From: a virus
Lineage: Duplodnaviria > Heunggongvirae > Uroviricota > Caudoviricetes
Reading direction: 5' to 3' (one strand)
Virus record (IMG/VR): IMGVR_UViG_2695420576_000005
Location: 1-34,113 of that record
DNA length: 34,113 nt
Shown here: piece after piece, positions 2,604-30,128 of the stretch
Position numbering within the stretch: position 1 is the stretch's first letter
Layout: the number at the start of each line of letters is the position of its first letter
Notes under the pieces: generated by a model
Told to the model about the DNA's origin: nothing
What the model saw: the letters and a program-made list of their open reading frames with translations, nothing else
Databases searched by the model: none
Made by a program: the position numbers and the translations under genes

Positions 2604-2885
2604 TCACATCCAGCCACGAAGTTGATGCTCAACAGCAACCACGTATTCATCGAATAATGACGATATTTGCGAATCATTAATGATGCGCACGTTTACAAAA
2701 TATCCGTCTTCCTTAACACATACCGGTTCGCCATCTTCAGTCAGTTCTCCGGTTTCTTTGTACACGTTACCTATCACGTCGATAAGAATATCATCCTGCA
2801 TCGACTCGTCATCATAATAGCCAATACTCTCCATAAAGGCCGAAAAGTCGGCCCTGTCTTCAAATTTGAGTGTTAAATCTTTCAT
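2604..2885 (-). CDS. acidic 93-aa protein of unknown function, translationally coupled to stf
   Basis: Track ORF 2604..2885; its ATG (2883-2885) overlaps the stf stop (TAATG). No recognisable family; sits where Tfa would be in lambda. Confidence 0.5.
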   Translation of the reverse strand: MKDLTLKFEDRADFSAFMESIGYYDDESMQDDILIDVIGNVYKETGELTEDGEPVCVKEDGYFVNVRIINDSQISSLFDEYVVAVEHQLRGWM

Positions 2886-5284
2886 TAGATTGACTCCCCC
2901 ATTTGTGCCTCAGTTAATTCTTTATGCCAAATGCGTAAATTTTTCACATGACCGAACAGGTGTCTGTTGCCACTGGATGATTGTCCACCGATATTAATAT
3001 TACCGGCAGTATAACGTTGCAATGTATGCAGAGACGGGGAGCTGCCACCTAAAATTCCATCAACAACAACCTGCAACTGTTTATCTTCTGTAAACTTAAA
3101 GCCAGTAACAAATTTCCTTTTCTCTCTATTCCCATATGCTTTATATTCTGTTTTTGTTCCTTTGCCATTGGTGATAATTAGCCTTTTACCACGAGTGGTA
3201 AAACCAAAATACATATAACTTTCATCAGAAACTTCAGTCGTCGCCCCTGTAATTGAGATATTAAGCAAACGCGCAGAGCCTTCTAAATTAGGCATTTCAG
3301 AATCCCAATTAACATTAACTTCCATGAGAACACTAACTGGTGGAGTTGCCCAATTGAAAGGTATAGGTATGATTACCTGGTCACTTGCTCTCGTGGCACC
3401 GACCTCTGTTGTGATGATAAAAGATGACGCGTTTAGTCCCTTTTCGAATTGAGGGGTTGTTAACATTAATTTATCGCCAGACTTGATTGATCGTTGATGT
3501 GCTCCAAACTCAAAACGCCCATACATATTTTTTGCTTCTGGTGATTTGTAGGTAAACTCAACACGAATCCATCCATTAGACTCTCTGAATATGTTATAAG
3601 TTGCCGCCTCACCTCCAGAATAACTCAACATATCGCCAGTCTCGCAATCAATATATGCGCCAGCGGTCAGTGTGTTACTTGAGCCATCGTCGTTAACATA
3701 TGATATTCTTGGACGCAACGTGATAATACCATCCCCACTTACTTTTTTAACTCTGCAGGATAAAGTAACTGATTCATTTGCCGAAACTGAAATAACCCTG
3801 GTATATCCAGTAGAAATTAATGTCGCCCTTTCAGTTGTGGATGTTTCTTTAACGCCAAACAAACCATAACTGAAACCATACTCATCAACTCCCGTGGTAA
3901 TAGTTAAGTTAGCAGTGTCATAGTTCCACGATACTGGTGTATTCGTATAAGAAAAAGTATTCGTTCTCTGACCTTCAATGAGCAGACCATCTTTTTCAAA
4001 ACGTGGTTCATTTATCGCTGATTCAGCAAAACACCCAGACTTATCTATATACGTTGCAGTTGACGCCCTGGTAAATGAAACAACCTTTTCAGACGGCAAT
4101 GCAATAACATCGTCACCAACTGTGATGCTCTTATATCCAGGAGCAAACCCGGTAATCATATCCAGTGAATCGTTAAACGGTATCCACACCTCAGGTAACG
4201 GCTGTAAGACATATTTATACGGCTCCGCAGCCTGGCTTGCGTACTCTCTGGCTGCATCTTCGCTTGCTTTAGCTGCCGTCTGGCTTGCTGCCGATGCTTT
4301 CGCTGAGTTCGCAGCCGCTGTTTCGCTCGCCTTTGCGTTGGTTTCACTGGTTTTTGCTGCTTTTTGACTGTTAGCTGATGCAGTGGCAGAAGCAGCCGCC
4401 GCACTTGCAGAACCAGCTGCAGCACTCTCGCTTTCAGCTGCTGCAGCCTGACTACTTTTCGCCGCAGTTTCACTGGCTTTGGCATTCGTTTCGCTGGTCT
4501 TCGCTGCTGTCTGGCTGGACTTTGCGTTAGTTTCACTCGTCTTCGCAGCTTTCTGGCTGTTAGCCGCAGCAGTTGCTGATCCGGCTGCTGAAGTCGCAGA
4601 ACCGGCCGCCGCACTCTCGCTGTCAGCTGCTGCATCCTGACTGCTTTTCGCCGCAGTTTCACTGGCTTTGGCATTCGTTTCGCTGGTTTTCGCTGCCGTC
4701 TGGCTGGACTTCGCGTTGGTTTCGCTCGTCTTTGCGGCTGTCTCACTGTTTTTCGCGTTGGTTTCTGATTTTTTGGCTGCAGTCGCGGAGTTTGCCGATG
4801 CAGTCTGTGAGGCCGCTGCCGCCTGTGCGCTGTTAGCTGCGTTCGTTTCTGAGGTTTTCGCCGCGTTCTTCGATGATGCCGCTGCTGTTTCGGATTTCTT
4901 TGCCGCCGCTGCGCTCTGAGAGGCGGCTTCAGCGTTGCGTGCCGCTTCTTCCACCATTTCCTCAAAACGACGCAATGCCTCCGGCATGACATCATCTTCC
5001 GTCATGGCACCGAGAAAATCATTCAGCGTCCCCGGCTTAGAATCTTCATACACGGTGATGGTCCCGGCATGTGAAGGCGGAAAACCTTCAACCAGCAGGA
5101 TAACGCTGTACTGGCCATACTCAACATCCATGCTGTAACGCCCGGCTTCATCCGGATTTTCAGAGGCCACCGTGTTCACCAGTACCGTGGTGCTGTTACG
5201 CTTTGCCTTCAGTTGAATAGTGCAGTTCTGTATTGGTTTTCCCGCACCATCTTTCAGCACACCTGAGATTTTTACTGCTGCCAT
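2885..5284 (-). CDS. stf: side tail fibre protein Stf (lambda-like N-terminus, Ala/Ser/Thr repeat shaft, divergent C-terminal domain)
   Basis: Track ORF 2885..5290 (801 aa). MAAVKISGVLKDGAGKPIQNCTIQLKA... is near-identical to the lambda Stf N-terminus; lambda-equivalent ATG at 5282-5284 with GGAG RBS. The C-terminal ~450 aa are unrelated to lambda Stf. Confidence 0.85.
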   Translation of the reverse strand: MAAVKISGVLKDGAGKPIQNCTIQLKAKRNSTTVLVNTVASENPDEAGRYSMDVEYGQYSVILLVEGFPPSHAGTITVYEDSKPGTLNDFLGAMTEDDVMPEALRRFEEMVEEAARNAEAASQSAAAAKKSETAAASSKNAAKTSETNAANSAQAAAASQTASANSATAAKKSETNAKNSETAAKTSETNAKSSQTAAKTSETNAKASETAAKSSQDAAADSESAAAGSATSAAGSATAAANSQKAAKTSETNAKSSQTAAKTSETNAKASETAAKSSQAAAAESESAAAGSASAAAASATASANSQKAAKTSETNAKASETAAANSAKASAASQTAAKASEDAAREYASQAAEPYKYVLQPLPEVWIPFNDSLDMITGFAPGYKSITVGDDVIALPSEKVVSFTRASTATYIDKSGCFAESAINEPRFEKDGLLIEGQRTNTFSYTNTPVSWNYDTANLTITTGVDEYGFSYGLFGVKETSTTERATLISTGYTRVISVSANESVTLSCRVKKVSGDGIITLRPRISYVNDDGSSNTLTAGAYIDCETGDMLSYSGGEAATYNIFRESNGWIRVEFTYKSPEAKNMYGRFEFGAHQRSIKSGDKLMLTTPQFEKGLNASSFIITTEVGATRASDQVIIPIPFNWATPPVSVLMEVNVNWDSEMPNLEGSARLLNISITGATTEVSDESYMYFGFTTRGKRLIITNGKGTKTEYKAYGNREKRKFVTGFKFTEDKQLQVVVDGILGGSSPSLHTLQRYTAGNINIGGQSSSGNRHLFGHVKNLRIWHKELTEAQMGESI
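4380..4760. repeat. 189-bp (63-codon) tandem direct repeat inside stf, two near-identical copies with degenerate flanking copies
   Basis: ttttcgccgcagtttcactggctttggcattcgtttcgctgg occurs at 4456 and again at 4645 (period 189 bp); the protein shows repeated AKTSETNAKSSQTAAKTSETNAKASETAAKSSQ blocks. Confidence 0.75.
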
Positions 5285-5294
5285 ATCCACTCCA

Positions 5295-6015: not shown

Positions 6016-9000
6016 TCAGCTGATACTGATGCCTGCAGTGGCTTTCTTCATCACAACAACCAGCAAATCGCTGATACTTGCTGTGGGATACCAACCATTT
6101 ACCCACCATGCTGATACAGAAAACTCCAGTGTCATTACACCACTGCCTGCAGGCATATCAATAACACCCGTGTAAATCAGAGTATTATCCAGAGCCGTTC
6201 GGTTATAAATTTCAGCCCCGTTTTTCTTCACTATCAGGCGGCATGACGAATAAGTATCGCTATTCTCCCGCTCATGTCTGGCACCGCAGAAAGCCCACCG
6301 CTGGAATAACAATTTGCCGGTCAAACGACTGATCGTCATAAACCCTGACGGTAATAGTCCCTGATGGCCACCGCTCCGGTGCACGGGAGTCCCGGGGGAA
6401 AGCTTTGCCCACTGTTTTAACGAGATCGCCTTCAATCTGGTTCGCGGACAGTTTTCCCAGAACCCGACAGTTCTCGTTAATCGTGACATTATTGAGCGTC
6501 CCGGAGTTCGCATTCACGTTACCGCTGATATCGGCATTTTTCGCCGTCAGCCGCCCGTCCGGTGTCAGGGAAAATACCGGAGGATTGCCGCCACTGGTAA
6601 TGGTGGGAGCCGTCAGATACTTCAGGAACACTTCGTTCATGAATATCTGGTTGCCCTGCGCCACAAACATCGGCGTTTCATTCCCGTTTGCCGGGTCAAT
6701 AAACGCGATACGGTTAGCGGCAACCAGGAACTGGCTCAGTTTGCCTTCCTCCGTATCCTCCATACTAAGGCCAAGCCCCGCGACATAATGCCTGCCGTCT
6801 TCGGTCTGCTCAATTTTGACGCCCCACATGGCATTCCATTTATCGTTGGCGTCCTTCCACTCTTTCGAAAACTCCTCCAGTTTGCTGGCGTTATCCTCCG
6901 TCAGCTCGACTTTTTCCAGCAGCTCCTTGCCGAGATGGGATTCGGTTATCTGGCCTTTGAAAAAATCCAGGTAACCTTCCGCATCATCGCTCGGCTGACC
7001 AACAGCCTCCACGAATGCCGATTTGCCAACGGTGTTCACACTGCGGATATAAAAGTAATAATCATGGCCCGGTTTGATATTGATACTGGCAGCTATCCAG
7101 TACAGCGCCGTACCAAGATAGCGGGCTGTGGTCTCAACCTGCCTGATATCGGTAATCCGCTTTTCCGAGAACCAGAACTCAAACTGTACCGTCGGATCAT
7201 AAACCGCAAGATGCGGCGTGGCAGTTATCTGAAAATAGCCCGGCGTCAGCTCAATCCGCGACGGCGCTGCCGGTGCGGCAATCCGGAACGATACCGATGC
7301 CGGATCGCCCTGCTGTCCCCACGCATTTACCGCCCGGACCGTCAGCGTGTAACGCCCCAGCGCCAGTTGCCTGAAGCGGTATGTGGTTTCCGTCGTCCTG
7401 GCCGTGCTGACCAGCCGCTCACTGCCGTCATCCGCTGCCACGGTCAGGCGAAGCATAAAGCTCACCCCCTTCACCACCTTCGGCGTATCCCAGCGCGCCA
7501 GCACCTGATACTCCCCGCTGTCTGAGGTGACTTCGGCAGTCAGGTGCTGCACCGCAGGCGGCGTGACACCATTCACCGTGCCGCTCTGGTCGCCGTCAAA
7601 GTGCGCCCCGTTATCCACGATGGCCTCTTTTTCCGGCACATGCTGCACGGCGGTGATGGCATACGTGCCGTCGTCGTTCTCACGGATACTCACGCAGCGG
7701 AACAGGCGCTGGCGCAGCGTCGGCAGCTTCAGCCCCCATACGCTGTATTCAGCAACACCGTCAGGAACACGGCTCACTTTTACCTTCACGCCGTCGGTGA
7801 CGGACTGAACCTCCACGCTGACCGGATTGCCACTTCCGTCAACCAGACTTATCAGCGTGGTACCGGAGGATGGCAGCGTGATTTCACGGTCGAGCGTCAG
7901 CGTCCGGGTCTGGCTGTTCACCGCCAGCACGCGCAAGCCGATGCTGATACCCGCATAGTCATCATCACAGATTTCAATGACATCCCCCGGTACATGGCGA
8001 AGCCCTTCCGCACCCACGCTGAAGTCCACGGTCTGCGTTTCCAGCAGTTCCGTTTTAATCAGCCACAGCCCGGCGCGGTGCGCCTGCCCCCGGCTGGTAC
8101 AGCCAAAGGCATCCATCTTCGTGACGTTACGACCGTAACGGGCAATGGCCTGCGTATCTTCAACAAGCTCTGTCGCCGTCTCCCAGCCGTTGTTCGGGTC
8201 AATCCAGTTCACCTCAACGGCATTATGGCGGTCCTTCAGGGCGCTGAAGCTGTAGCGGAACGGCGCGCCATCATCCGGCATCACCACATTACTGCGGTTA
8301 TAGGTCCACACCTTATCTGATGGTCGGTCCTGCACGAACGTCAGCGTCTGCCCGTTCCATACCGGCATACAGCGCATCGCCGAGCAGAAATCACTGAGCA
8401 CATCCCACGCCTTGCGCTGTGTGGTCAGCCAGGCATTACAGGTGATGCGCGGCTCCGTGCCACCAAAGCCATCCGGCACCGACTGGTCGCAATTCTGGCC
8501 GATGACATACAGCGCCCATTTGTCCACATCCGCCGCACCGAGACGCTTCCCCATGCCGTAGCGCGGATGGGTCAGCATATCCCACAGACACCAGGCCATG
8601 TTGTTGCTGTATGCTGGCTTAAACGTTCCGTCCCAGATACCGCTGTATTGTCGCGTCTGCGGGTTATAGTTCGACGGCACCTGCAGAATGCGCCCGCGAA
8701 GATGATAATTACGACTCACCTGCTGGCTGCCGAACTGCTCCGAGGGTCCACCTGTACGCTGACCAGTGCCGTGTTCGGGTAGCACTGTTTCACATCGATG
8801 ATTTCGGTGTATGACGACCAGAGCGTTTTGTTCTGCAGCTGGTCTGTGGTGCTGTCCGGCGTCATCCTGCGCATCCGGATATTAAACGGGCGCGGCGGCA
8901 GGTTATCCACCACCACCGAGGCCAGATACTGCGAGGTGGTTTTGCCTTTAATGGTGATGTCTTTTTCCGTCACCCAGCCACCGTTACGCTGTATCTGAAC

Positions 9001-9414
9001 CAGCAGGCGGACTTCCGACGGATTCCGGTCCCCCTTTGAGGTGGTTTCCACCAGTGCCTGCACACCGAAGGTAAAGCGCAGACGGTCGATGTTTGCAGAC
9101 GTGATGGTCCGGGTAATCGGCGTGTCGTACTTCACTTCCGTACCCAGCACCGTCTCGGAGCCGGAGGATTCAAATCCCTCCGGCGGTGTCTGCTCCTGCT
9201 CACCTGCCCGGAACACCACCGTGACACCGGAGATATTGGTATTCCCCTCACTGTCCAGCACCGGCGTACTGTTCAGCAGCACACTTTTTAATCCGTCCAC
9301 CGGACCTTCAATCGGCCCTTCACTGATGGCGTCTATCACGCTCAGCATCTGGGATGATTTCAGGTTGTCCTTCGCTTCGCGCGGGGTATGCCCCTTACTG
9401 CTGCCTTTACCCAT
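6016..9414 (-). pseudogene. J: tail tip / host-specificity protein J, interrupted by two frameshifts
   Basis: Three collinear ORF pieces (8716..9414, 6272..8785, 6016..6513) each match successive parts of lambda J. The span is 3399 nt, the intact lambda J length. Frame changes at about 8744-8747 (C run) and 6290-6293 (T run). Confidence 0.85.
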
Positions 9415-9475
9415 TCCTCACGCTCCAGAAACGAACAAAACCGCCCTGAGGCGGTTTCACACAAAACATTCTGCA

Positions 9476-14823: not shown

Positions 14824-15198
14824 TCAGACGAGGGCCTGTTCAGGGGAATTATTCACCACAAACTCAGACATTCCGGACAGACGTAACACCACGTTTTCAG
14901 CCTGAGCAATTGCCTCCGTGGGCCAGGTGGTAAGCACTTCCTGCTCAATCTGCGTAATGGCTTCATTCATGGACGGCAGCTTTGTCTTCTGCGGATGGTT
15001 ATGCCACAGAGACATCGCCACCAGAAACGCCCCGCCTCTGATAAGATCCTCTACAGACACCTGCAGGTTGCCGCTGGATTCAGCCTTTTTTTCCTGCTCT
15101 TTCAACCAGGCAAGATGCTCAATACGCTGCAGGGCTGACAGTTCAGAAAGCGTGACGGTCACGCCGTTATGTTCAAATGATTCTGTTTTCAGGAACAT
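14824..15198 (-). CDS. G: tail assembly chaperone G, truncated: 3' end out of register with the slippery site
   Basis: 124-aa ORF MFLKTESFEHNGVTVTLSELSALQRIEHLA... matches lambda gpG (140 aa) but stops at TGA 14824-14826; the conserved tail SSDAGPAEPVSAGKCSS and GGGAAAG lie in the +1 frame. Confidence 0.75.
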   Translation of the reverse strand: MFLKTESFEHNGVTVTLSELSALQRIEHLAWLKEQEKKAESSGNLQVSVEDLIRGGAFLVAMSLWHNHPQKTKLPSMNEAITQIEQEVLTTWPTEAIAQAENVVLRLSGMSEFVVNNSPEQALV

Positions 15199-24935: not shown

Positions 24936-25386
24936 CCCGTTGGCCGTTCTGGTCTACTTCGTAATGGGATTTAATAGCTGAACGACAAAAGTCTTGCGAC
25001 CACAGTCACACAGACCTGAATACACGTCCTGTTTCTTCCACCCCCGCACAGGACTGGCGAGCATGAGGGCCCCCCCCCCGCGAACCATAAACGCGGTAAA
25101 AACCCGGTGTGCATCGTTTTTGATTATTCCCGCACACTCACGCAGAAGGAATTCCCCGTCGGGCTACGGTCATGGTTAATGCGGGAATACGGCGACGATA
25201 CAGCGCAGCTAAAAGGGTAATGGACAGATAGAGCGGTTTATTTCATTCCACAGGATTCTGAGTGCCTCCCTCCGCCAATAGGCTGAGCATCCACCTATAT
25301 AGTTTTAATTTTCATCAATCCATTTAACTATCGTTTAATTGTTGTCACATAGGATTCTGCCGTTTTTAACAATGCAGGATAATAAG

Positions 25387-25680
25387 ATGAAAAAAATGTT
25401 GTTTTCTGCCGCTCTGGCAATGCTTATTACAGGATGTGCTCAACAGACGTTTACTGTTGGAAACAAACCGACAGCAGTAACACCAAAGGAAACCATCACC
25501 CATCATTTCTTCGTTTCGGGAATTGGACAGGAGAAAACTGGTGATGCAGCCAAAATTTGTGGCGGCGCAGAAAATGTTGTTAAAACAGAAACCCAGCAAA
25601 CATTCGTAAATGGATTGCTCGGTTTTATTACTTTAGGCATTTATACTCCGCTGGAAGCGCGTGTCTATTGCTCACAATAA
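25387..25680 (+). CDS. bor: Bor lipoprotein (serum-resistance lipoprotein family)
   Basis: Track ORF 25339..25680; lambda-equivalent start MKKMLFSAALAMLITGCAQQTFTV... (ATG 25387-25389, AGGA RBS); lipobox LITGC; 97 aa; opposite strand to the lysis genes as in lambda. Confidence 0.9.
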   Translation: MKKMLFSAALAMLITGCAQQTFTVGNKPTAVTPKETITHHFFVSGIGQEKTGDAAKICGGAENVVKTETQQTFVNGLLGFITLGIYTPLEARVYCSQ

Positions 25681-25711: not shown

Positions 25712-26173
25712 CTATCTGCACTGCTCATTAATATACTTCTGGGTTCCTTCCAGTTGTTTTTGCATCGTGATCAGCCTCTCTCTGAGGGTGAAATAATCCC
25801 GTTCAGCGGTGTCTGCCAGTCGGGGGGAGGCTGCATTATCCACGCCGGAGGCGGTGGTGGCTTCACGCACTGACTGACAGACTGCTTTGATGTGCAACCG
25901 ACGACGACCAGCGGCAACATCATCACGCAGAGCATCATTTTCAGCTTTCGCATCAGCTAACTCCTTCGTGTATTTTGCATCGAGCGCAGCAACATCACGC
26001 TGACGCATCTGCATGTCAGTAATTGCCGCATTCGCCAGCTTCAGTTCTCTGGCATTTTTGTCGCGCTGGGCTTTGTAGGTAATGGCGTTATCACGGTAAT
26101 GATTAACAGTCCATAACAGGCAGACGATGATGCAGATGAGCAGAGCGGAGATAATCGCGGTTAACCGACTCAG
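25712..26173 (-). CDS. Rz: Rz i-spanin; start codon uncertain (lambda ATG position is CTG here)
   Basis: Track ORF 25712..26302. From ...[37 protein letters not shown]... to ...KYINEQCR it is near-identical to lambda Rz, but the codon at the lambda Met position is CTG (26171-26173). In-frame GTGs lie 10-12 codons upstream. Confidence 0.7.
25771..25953 (-). CDS. Rz1: Rz1 o-spanin lipoprotein (embedded in Rz, +1 frame)
   Basis: 60-aa [63 protein letters not shown]; lipobox VVGC and proline-rich region as in lambda Rz1. Confidence 0.85.
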
Positions 26174-27563: not shown

Positions 27564-28684
27564 ATGAAAAAATTAACAGTGGCAATTTCTGCTGTAGCTG
27601 CATCAGTACTGATGGCGATGTCTGCTCAGGCAGCTGAAATTTATAATAAAGACAGTAACAAGCTGGATCTATACGGGAAAGTTAATGCCAAGCACTACTT
27701 TTCCTCTAATGATGCAGATGATGGTGATACTACTTATGCCCGTCTTGGCTTCAAAGGTGAAACCCAAATCAACGATCAACTGACTGGTTTCGGTCAGTGG
27801 GAATATGAATTCAAAGGCAACCGTGCTGAATCTCAAGGTTCTTCCAAAGACAAAACCCGTCTTGCATTTGCAGGCCTGAAATTTGGTGATTACGGCTCAA
27901 TCGATTACGGCCGTAACTACGGTGTAGCATACGACATCGGTGCGTGGACTGACGTCCTGCCAGAATTCGGTGGTGATACCTGGACCCAAACAGATGTGTT
28001 CATGACTGGTCGCACTACTGGTGTTGCAACTTATCGTAACAACGACTTCTTTGGTCTGGTCGATGGCCTGAACTTTGCTGCTCAGTATCAGGGTAAAAAT
28101 GACCGCACTGACGTAACTGAAGCCAACGGTGATGGTTTCGGTTTCTCCACTACTTATGAGTATGAAGGATTCGGCGTGGGTGCAACCTATGCTAAATCAG
28201 ATCGCACTGACGGTCAGGTCGCCTATGGTAAGAGCAAATTCAATGCCTCCGGCAAAAATGCGGAAGTATGGGCTGCAGGCCTGAAATATGATGCGAACAA
28301 TATCTATCTGGCTACCACATATTCTGAAACTCAGAATATGACCGTTTTTGGTAATAACCATATTGCAAACAAAGCACAAAACTTTGAAGCAGTAGCACAA
28401 TATCAGTTTGACTTCGGTCTGCGACCATCTGTTGCTTACCTTCAGTCAAAAGGTAAAGACCTTGGTGTTCATGGTGACCGAGACTTAGTCAAGTATGTCG
28501 AGTCTTAGTCAAGTATGTCGATGTAGTCAAGTATGTCGATGTCGGTGCTACTTACTACTTTAATAAAAACATGTCCACTTTTGTTGATTACAAAATCAAC
28601 TTAATTGACGATAGTAAGTTTACCAAAACAGCTGGTATTGATACCGACGACATCGTCGCTGTAGGTCTGGTTTATCAGTTCTAA
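27564..28684 (+). pseudogene. nmpC: prophage-encoded OmpC/NmpC-family general porin, reading frame broken 60 codons from the 3' end
   Basis: ORF 27564..28508 (314 aa with signal peptide [23 protein letters not shown], then [16 protein letters not shown]...). Downstream in another frame is an intact porin C-terminus ...[54 protein letters not shown] (stop 28682-28684). Confidence 0.85.
28485..28539 (+). repeat. imperfect tandem triplication of a 16-20 nt unit (ttagtcaagtatgtcga) causing a 38-nt insertion in the porin gene
   Basis: Copies at 28485-28501, 28505-28521 and 28524-28539, separated by gtc and tg. Deleting 28486-28523 restores a continuous porin frame. Confidence 0.8.
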
Positions 28685-29841: not shown

Positions 29842-30128
29842 GCCTCAATAACCCCCTCTTTCAACCAGATAACCTGTGTTCTCGCCATACCTTCCAGCGC
29901 GCATTCTTTTGCATATCCAGCGTCAACAAAATGCGTGCGACGGTCGATTTCGTCGTGGCAGGCAGAACATGCAATGGTGGCAATCAGGTCTGGCGGTTTG
30001 ATACCGGTACCGCACAATCCAGCCAGCCGGATATGTGCCAGTACTGACGTTTCAGGATTGCCATTACATACGCCAGGGATTCTTACCTGGCATTCCCGAC
30101 CACGCGCTGCTTTTCTCAAATCAGCCAT
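29838..30128 (-). CDS. ybcO: YbcO-like Cys-rich nin-region protein (DUF1364)
   Basis: Track ORF 29838..30167; likely start [42 protein letters not shown]... (ATG 30126-30128) overlapping the ninE stop. Confidence 0.7.

Follow-up and report, generated by a model that had tools for sequence, protein, structure and literature searches.

In lambda-type tail operons the genes are arranged in the order V-G-T-H-M-L-K-I-J-lom-stf, in which J encodes the tip attachment protein, the central tail fibre (8IYK chain J). An intact orthologue of lambda J is WP_000515309.1 from E. coli UPEC132, of which residues 1-1130 align with residues 1-1131 of the lambda protein (PDB 8iyk_J) with an E-value of 0. Changes of reading frame are not foreign to this operon, as lambdoid tail operons use a programmed -1 frameshift (G/GT).

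The DNA analyzed here, referred to as the window, is the whole stretch of 34,113 bp and covers record positions 21,246-55,358 (record = window + 21,245). Its prophage has the same operon order as the lambda type, and within the series H-M-L-K-I-J-Lom-tail fibre, J is located after I and before lom/stf, as is the case for lambda-type J. Six Pfam families with scores above the curated cut-offs follow each other in canonical order across the J region, namely FNIII-A_GpJ, Phage-tail_3, Ig_J, Ig_J_second, Phage_Tail_Tip, and Ig_GpJ_C. This domain order is the same as in lambda J and in WP_000515309.1. Judged by its sequence, the gene is an ordinary lambda-type J with nothing novel in comparison to known systems. 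In contrast to both orthologues, the window gene as deposited is split into three pieces; instead of a single uninterrupted frame of ~1130 codons, it contains two frameshifts.

The side tail-fibre gene of the prophage (2885-5290, minus strand) consists of a single ORF of 801 aa, in which a long repeat region is rich in Ala, Ser, Thr, and Lys (AAKTSETNAKSSQT...). The tail-fibre ORF of UPEC132 (L002 5410-7815) is uninterrupted, too, yet RefSeq divides it into three separate or partial features, apparently an annotation quirk in this repetitive region. The prophage furthermore carries the serum-survival gene iss (~25360-25655), a homologue of bor, as well as a porin gene and lom. It directly adjoins sitABCD, and this arrangement is kept in eight or more complete genomes of extraintestinal E. 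coli.

Structure of the deposited J gene

A first-pass annotation of this DNA had described a frameshift in the N-terminal quarter of J, located on the minus strand in the sequence GTGGACCCTCGG (8751..8740) with a plus-strand GGG at 8744-8746 (record ~29,989-29,991). Coordinates and sequence proved to be exact. The 232-aa ORF at 9414..8716 indeed stops after the junction, J continues one frame over, and the Pfam domains on both sides belong to J. The J break is a deterministic break of the reading frame and not a chance pattern. It is located about one fifth into a lambda-type J, after residue 223 of 1131; the described position is correct, whereas the reading of the lesion as a C lost from a C run is not.

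The minus strand of the window reads GTA CAG GTG GAC CCT CGG AGC AGT TCG GCA GCC AGC AGG TGA at the junction. In a base-by-base alignment with UPEC132, GTGGA--CTCGGAG of the relative is opposed to GTGGACCCTCGGAG of the window, which has two extra C. Written for the coding strand, the window has GGA-CC-CTCGG and the relatives have GGACTCGG with a single C. The insertion of CC turns GAC TCG into GAC CCT CGG directly after J codon 223 (GAC, Asp), and the CCC at 8744..8746 (minus strand) represents a +2 frameshift; every J match listed is accordingly 2 bases shorter than the query. As deduced from the relatives, the ancestral state at the junction is GAC TCG with a single C, encoding V-D-S-E-Q. 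With this ancestral state, the window carries two extra C, and the CCC run is the lesion itself and not a pre-existing slippage-prone tract. The direction of the change is thereby the opposite of what had been proposed: instead of a C run that has lost one C, there is a gain of two bases (CC) in comparison to every relative, all of which have a single C.

The first J fragment (8716..9414, minus strand) is the 232-aa ORF, which contains the FNIII-A_GpJ domain (PF24801, E=6e-43). It comprises native residues 1-223, encoded from 9414 to 8746, followed by nine out-of-frame residues (PRSSSAASR) and a TGA. The second fragment (6272..8743, minus strand) starts at the TCG at position 8743 and comprises native residues 224-1039 with Phage-tail_3, Ig_J, Ig_J_second, Phage_Tail_Tip, and profile positions 1-44 of Ig_GpJ_C. 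It ends with seven out-of-frame residues (GFLRCQT) and a TGA at 6274..6272. The cause of this second interruption is found after residue 1039, where the alignment with UPEC132 has GGG in the window (6294..6296, minus strand) versus GG in the relatives. This +1 frameshift is located inside the C-terminal receptor-binding domain, and Ig_GpJ_C is split at profile position 44 between the second and the third fragment. The latter (6016..6293, minus strand) encodes native residues 1040-1131 plus the native stop codon and matches Ig_GpJ_C at profile positions 44-135 (E=1e-21). Thus, J as deposited consists of three pieces and not of two, caused by the +2 at 8744-8746 and the +1 at 6294-6296.

Two further private changes are found in and near J. 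A tandem substitution of GG by TT at 7935..7936 (minus strand), identified by alignment, converts codon 493 from GGG to TTG and thereby Gly to Leu. In the I-J spacer, a private +1 (coding-strand T) is located at 9434..9435 (minus strand), ~20 nt upstream of the J start codon, in the same alignment. Removal of the three inserted bases yields a J protein of 1131 aa that is identical to UPEC132 gpJ WP_000515309.1 except for G493L. The repair suggested earlier, addition of one more C to obtain V-D-P-S-E-Q, restores the frame arithmetically, but a CCCC allele with this Pro is present in no J copy of the complete E. coli genomes or IMG/VR. Moreover, any repair confined to 8744-8746 leaves J broken by the second frameshift at 6294-6296.

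Junction alleles in related genomes and source of the window

Over the J region, the window is 99.8% identical to its closest complete genomes, which are E. coli UPEC132 and about ten more and which encode an intact gpJ of 3,396 nt. Matches were obtained from 251 phage records and ~14,900 places in complete E. coli genomes, and all top-ranked ones listed cover 299 bases, compared with 301 in the query. A short junction-centred query was compared with 3,559 complete E. coli genomes containing 6,560 J places, and the CCC allele of the window was found at none of these places (best match 57/59). The same applies to the in-frame CCCC allele with its extra Pro in the same 6,560 places and 3,559 genomes (best match 57/60). 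Instead, a single C, encoding V-D-S-E-Q, is present in every one of these 6,560 J copies. The CCC allele was also not found in IMG/VR, JGI metagenomes, or GTDB representative genomes, and the CCCC allele was not found in IMG/VR. The junction search has a positive control in the single-C allele, which was retrieved from 69 IMG/VR contigs. No length polymorphism at the junction was seen among the relatives in complete E. coli genomes and IMG/VR.

The exact 232-aa product was retrieved from one contig of one sample in the entire assembly collection. This is AOQH01000090.1, the source of the window itself, a 2013-era draft WGS contig of 55,674 bp belonging to GCA_000397345.1. A second protein with a private insertion, the sitA product, also maps to AOQH01000090.1 alone. 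As these two exact proteins with private insertions are present in the NCBI copy of the contig, the window is unaltered in comparison to the public record. A lesion shared by descent, as in an inherited pseudogene, does not agree with these results: the lesion occurs in a single assembly, and eight prophages that are nearly identical to this one are intact.

Private differences along the contig

The alignment of the window with UPEC132 contains 32 difference events in 34,113 bp. All nine length differences among them are insertions in the window (+9, +3, +1, +2, +1, +2, +3, +4, and +38), and there are no deletions. The +9 is located in sitD (462-470) and consists of TTTTTTCTG, which repeats the adjacent 9-mer imperfectly, and a +3 with a substitution is aligned at 2012-2015. 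The tape measure gene H (minus strand) has two insertions. A +2 at 11835-36 shifts the frame ~37 nt before the H stop, and a +3 with a substitution at 12607-10 creates an in-frame TGA; the source contig has H annotated in two pieces of 585 aa and 245 aa.

A private complex change in gpG (14827-14833, minus strand) replaces GCAGAT on the coding strand by GCCCTCGTCT, a net +4, and creates a TGA. The chaperone G is thereby truncated at 124 aa, and the stop codon lies 14 codons before the GGGAAAG slip site for G/GT, which is intact. As the TGA precedes the slip site, neither G nor GT could be made from the deposited sequence. The largest insertion is a private +38 in the ompC/nmpC-like porin gene of the prophage (28486-28523, plus strand), which frameshifts the porin. 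At this site, a ~19-mer (TTAGTCAAGTATGTCGAG/TG) that is present once in the relatives is repeated imperfectly in the window to give three tandem copies, and in its sequence this resembles an assembly 'stutter'. For window positions 5300-30000, eight complete genomes, which are independent and derive from different hosts and projects, agree on ~24,650 bases, in comparison to 24,701 in the window. The difference of 51 is the sum of the insertions of the window in this interval, which identifies the insertions as private to the contig.

The number of indels is about half that of the substitution events. Outside a cluster at 1030-1055, the single-base differences comprise 4 transitions versus 10 transversions, six of which are A:T>C:G, and four tandem or complex multi-base changes are seen in addition between the window and UPEC132. 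Private substitutions at 2858, 4622, 7935-36, 21512, 23601, 25274, 25541, 26173, and 29677-80 are dominated by A<->C and T>G, and the tandem double substitutions include CC>AA, TC>GA, and TG>CC. The private T>G at 26173 converts the ATG start codon of rzpD, which encodes an Rz-like endopeptidase, into CTG. The coding changes amount to ~13 non-synonymous versus 3-4 synonymous events, a ratio that is as expected for unfiltered random change, with no purifying selection visible at the sequence level. In natural polymorphism, transitions and synonymous sites are favoured, and natural bacterial indels are biased towards deletions. The substitution spectrum is unlike natural E. coli polymorphism and may hint at the sequencing chemistry.

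The cluster at 1030-1055 has six substitutions in 26 bases and is located in an unannotated stretch between sitD and a tail-fibre-assembly remnant. Unlike the scattered private changes, it could be a genuine small recombination patch. This cluster and some of the changes in the repetitive tail-fibre gene may represent genuine variation.

The chromosomal flank, of which ~9 kb without essential genes were covered, has differences of the same kind. In the 2,980 bp aligned over sitA-B-C outside the window (L004:12595-15574), the contig has a +3 (GTT), a +2 (AC), two substitutions, and 0 deletions. The +2 in sitA frameshifts the C-terminus, and the product is called at 287 aa instead of 304. The adjacent 5,470 bp of core chromosome with bluF, bluR, and ymg genes correspond to 5,466 bases in every top genome, a net +4 in the contig, and no top genome exceeds 99.8% identity over this flank. 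One of these insertions, a +1 G in the ymgA-ariR spacer, was located in a 390-bp alignment; the remaining +3 is a net figure derived from the lengths of BLAST matches over the 5.5 kb. With at least 5 events in 9.3 kb, the insertion density of the chromosome is no lower than that of the prophage, which has 8 in 33 kb. In the 37.1 kb that are fully aligned, 11 insertions are opposed to 0 deletions, for which we calculated p ~5e-4 under equal rates of insertion and deletion. The private discrepancies occur irrespective of gene function and also affect conserved chromosomal genes; they are found in sitD, sitA, and the ymgA-ariR spacer as well as in H, G, J, and the porin gene.

Origin of the J break and comparison with known systems

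The pattern of these differences makes it quite probable that the J frameshift is an error in the deposited draft assembly and not a property of the phage or the strain. According to the alignments, the +2 insertion is present in one assembly only, the length differences throughout the contig are insertion-only, and no sign of purifying selection is apparent. The most likely cause is a sequencing or consensus error rather than a mutation in the living strain. This interpretation is favoured because the differences are private, insertion-only, indel-rich, blind to gene function, and unselected, and are set on a backbone that is otherwise identical to eight intact copies. As the insertion-only discrepancy runs through the whole contig, the likely cause moves from gene-specific biology to data quality. 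Two spurious C would have entered the consensus beside the genuine single C and would thereby have split an otherwise intact J. Spurious bases would have been added likewise at about a dozen other sites of the contig, in the prophage and the chromosome alike, and the scatter of transversions and multi-base miscalls would derive from the same error process as the spurious J bases.

Alternatively, the CC insertion could be a genuine private mutation of the isolate, which would make J a young pseudogene in a decaying, tail-defective prophage. Prophage structural genes are common targets of inactivation, and tail genes decay in nature. The lesion is present in the deposited sequence, and there would be nothing remarkable about a private indel that inactivates J. 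The second J lesion and the broken genes H and G are as expected in an unselected cryptic prophage, and the non-synonymous to synonymous ratio of ~3:1 also fits relaxed selection. However, sitA, sitD, and the bluF-ymg flank have insertion-only differences at equal or higher density, and decay specific to the prophage was rejected as the sole cause because the chromosomal flank has like insertions. The complete lack of deletions versus at least 11 insertions is the opposite of the usual bacterial deletion bias, and indels at about half the number of substitution events are far above natural ratios. The site itself also argues against a natural event, as a single ancestral C provides no homopolymer tract to drive slippage to +2. 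If all changes were real, an otherwise identical prophage would have acquired two lesions in J, two in H, a stop codon in G, a lost Rz start, and a disrupted porin. These disabling changes are accompanied by almost no neutral divergence, while eight near-identical genomes are intact. Altogether, a genuine mutation is rather unlikely. If the lesions were real, J would be inactivated twice, and the sole consequence would be a further lambdoid prophage that is defective, in one isolate.

A broader variant, in which all private insertions and transversions are real, would require an insertion-biased and transversion-rich mutational burst in the isolate, and such a burst is very improbable. It could have been caused, for example, by an error-prone polymerase or a chemical mutagen and would have acted across prophage and chromosome, with J hit twice and H, G, the porin, and sitA lost.

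Still less credible is the possibility that the true allele is an in-frame CCCC with an extra Pro (V-D-P-S-E-Q), from which the assembly lost one C. Under-calling of homopolymers is a known type of error, and one added C gives a continuous frame arithmetically. Nevertheless, CCCC/Pro occurs neither at any of the 6,560 J places of the complete genomes (best match 57/60) nor in IMG/VR, every other length error in the contig is an insertion and not a deletion, and the rest of J is identical to the single-C relatives at the DNA level.

The weakest candidate, with hardly any probability left, is recoding or phase variation, i.e. a programmed ribosomal -1/+2 frameshift or a C-tract slippage switch comparable to lambda G/GT. 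The likeness to lambda G/GT consists in a frame change in a gene of the same lambdoid tail operon, and a GGGAAAG slip site is visible in the G gene of the window. The J junction differs in that a slippery X XXY YYZ heptamer is lacking, by direct reading, at the junction and in the 10 codons up to the TGA. It is also unconserved, as the two-frame arrangement occurs in none of the 6,560 related J copies and in none of the viral, metagenome, and GTDB representative collections, and the second frameshift downstream would still truncate J. Programmed -1/+2 frameshifting was rejected on these grounds, the missing slippery motif and the unconserved junction. A slip-strand contingency locus was rejected as well: a run of three bases is too short for slip-strand or transcriptional slippage, and the relatives have a single C, with neither a long tract nor CCC/CCCC variants.

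The assembly error that is favoured here would be relevant mainly as a data-quality flag. Users of the contig would wrongly score the prophage as tail-defective, and their counts of pseudogenes or variants would wrongly include J, H, G, the prophage porin, sitA, and sitD. For the biology of J, its host range, or recoding, the break would have no significance.

Among known systems, the contig differs from the classic profile of pure homopolymer errors, as only 3 of ~12 insertions extend an existing base. Several insertions are complex replacements (C>AGCG, T>CAAG, TCT>GACGAGG), which is also unlike pure homopolymer errors. In contrast, the contig agrees with genes split by indel errors in draft assemblies, in which the differences are likewise private to one contig, are distributed evenly over prophage and chromosome, are biased to one indel direction, and are unfiltered by selection. 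Imperfect local duplications are a further feature of indel errors in draft assemblies, and these are represented in the contig by the +38 in the porin gene and the +9 in sitD.
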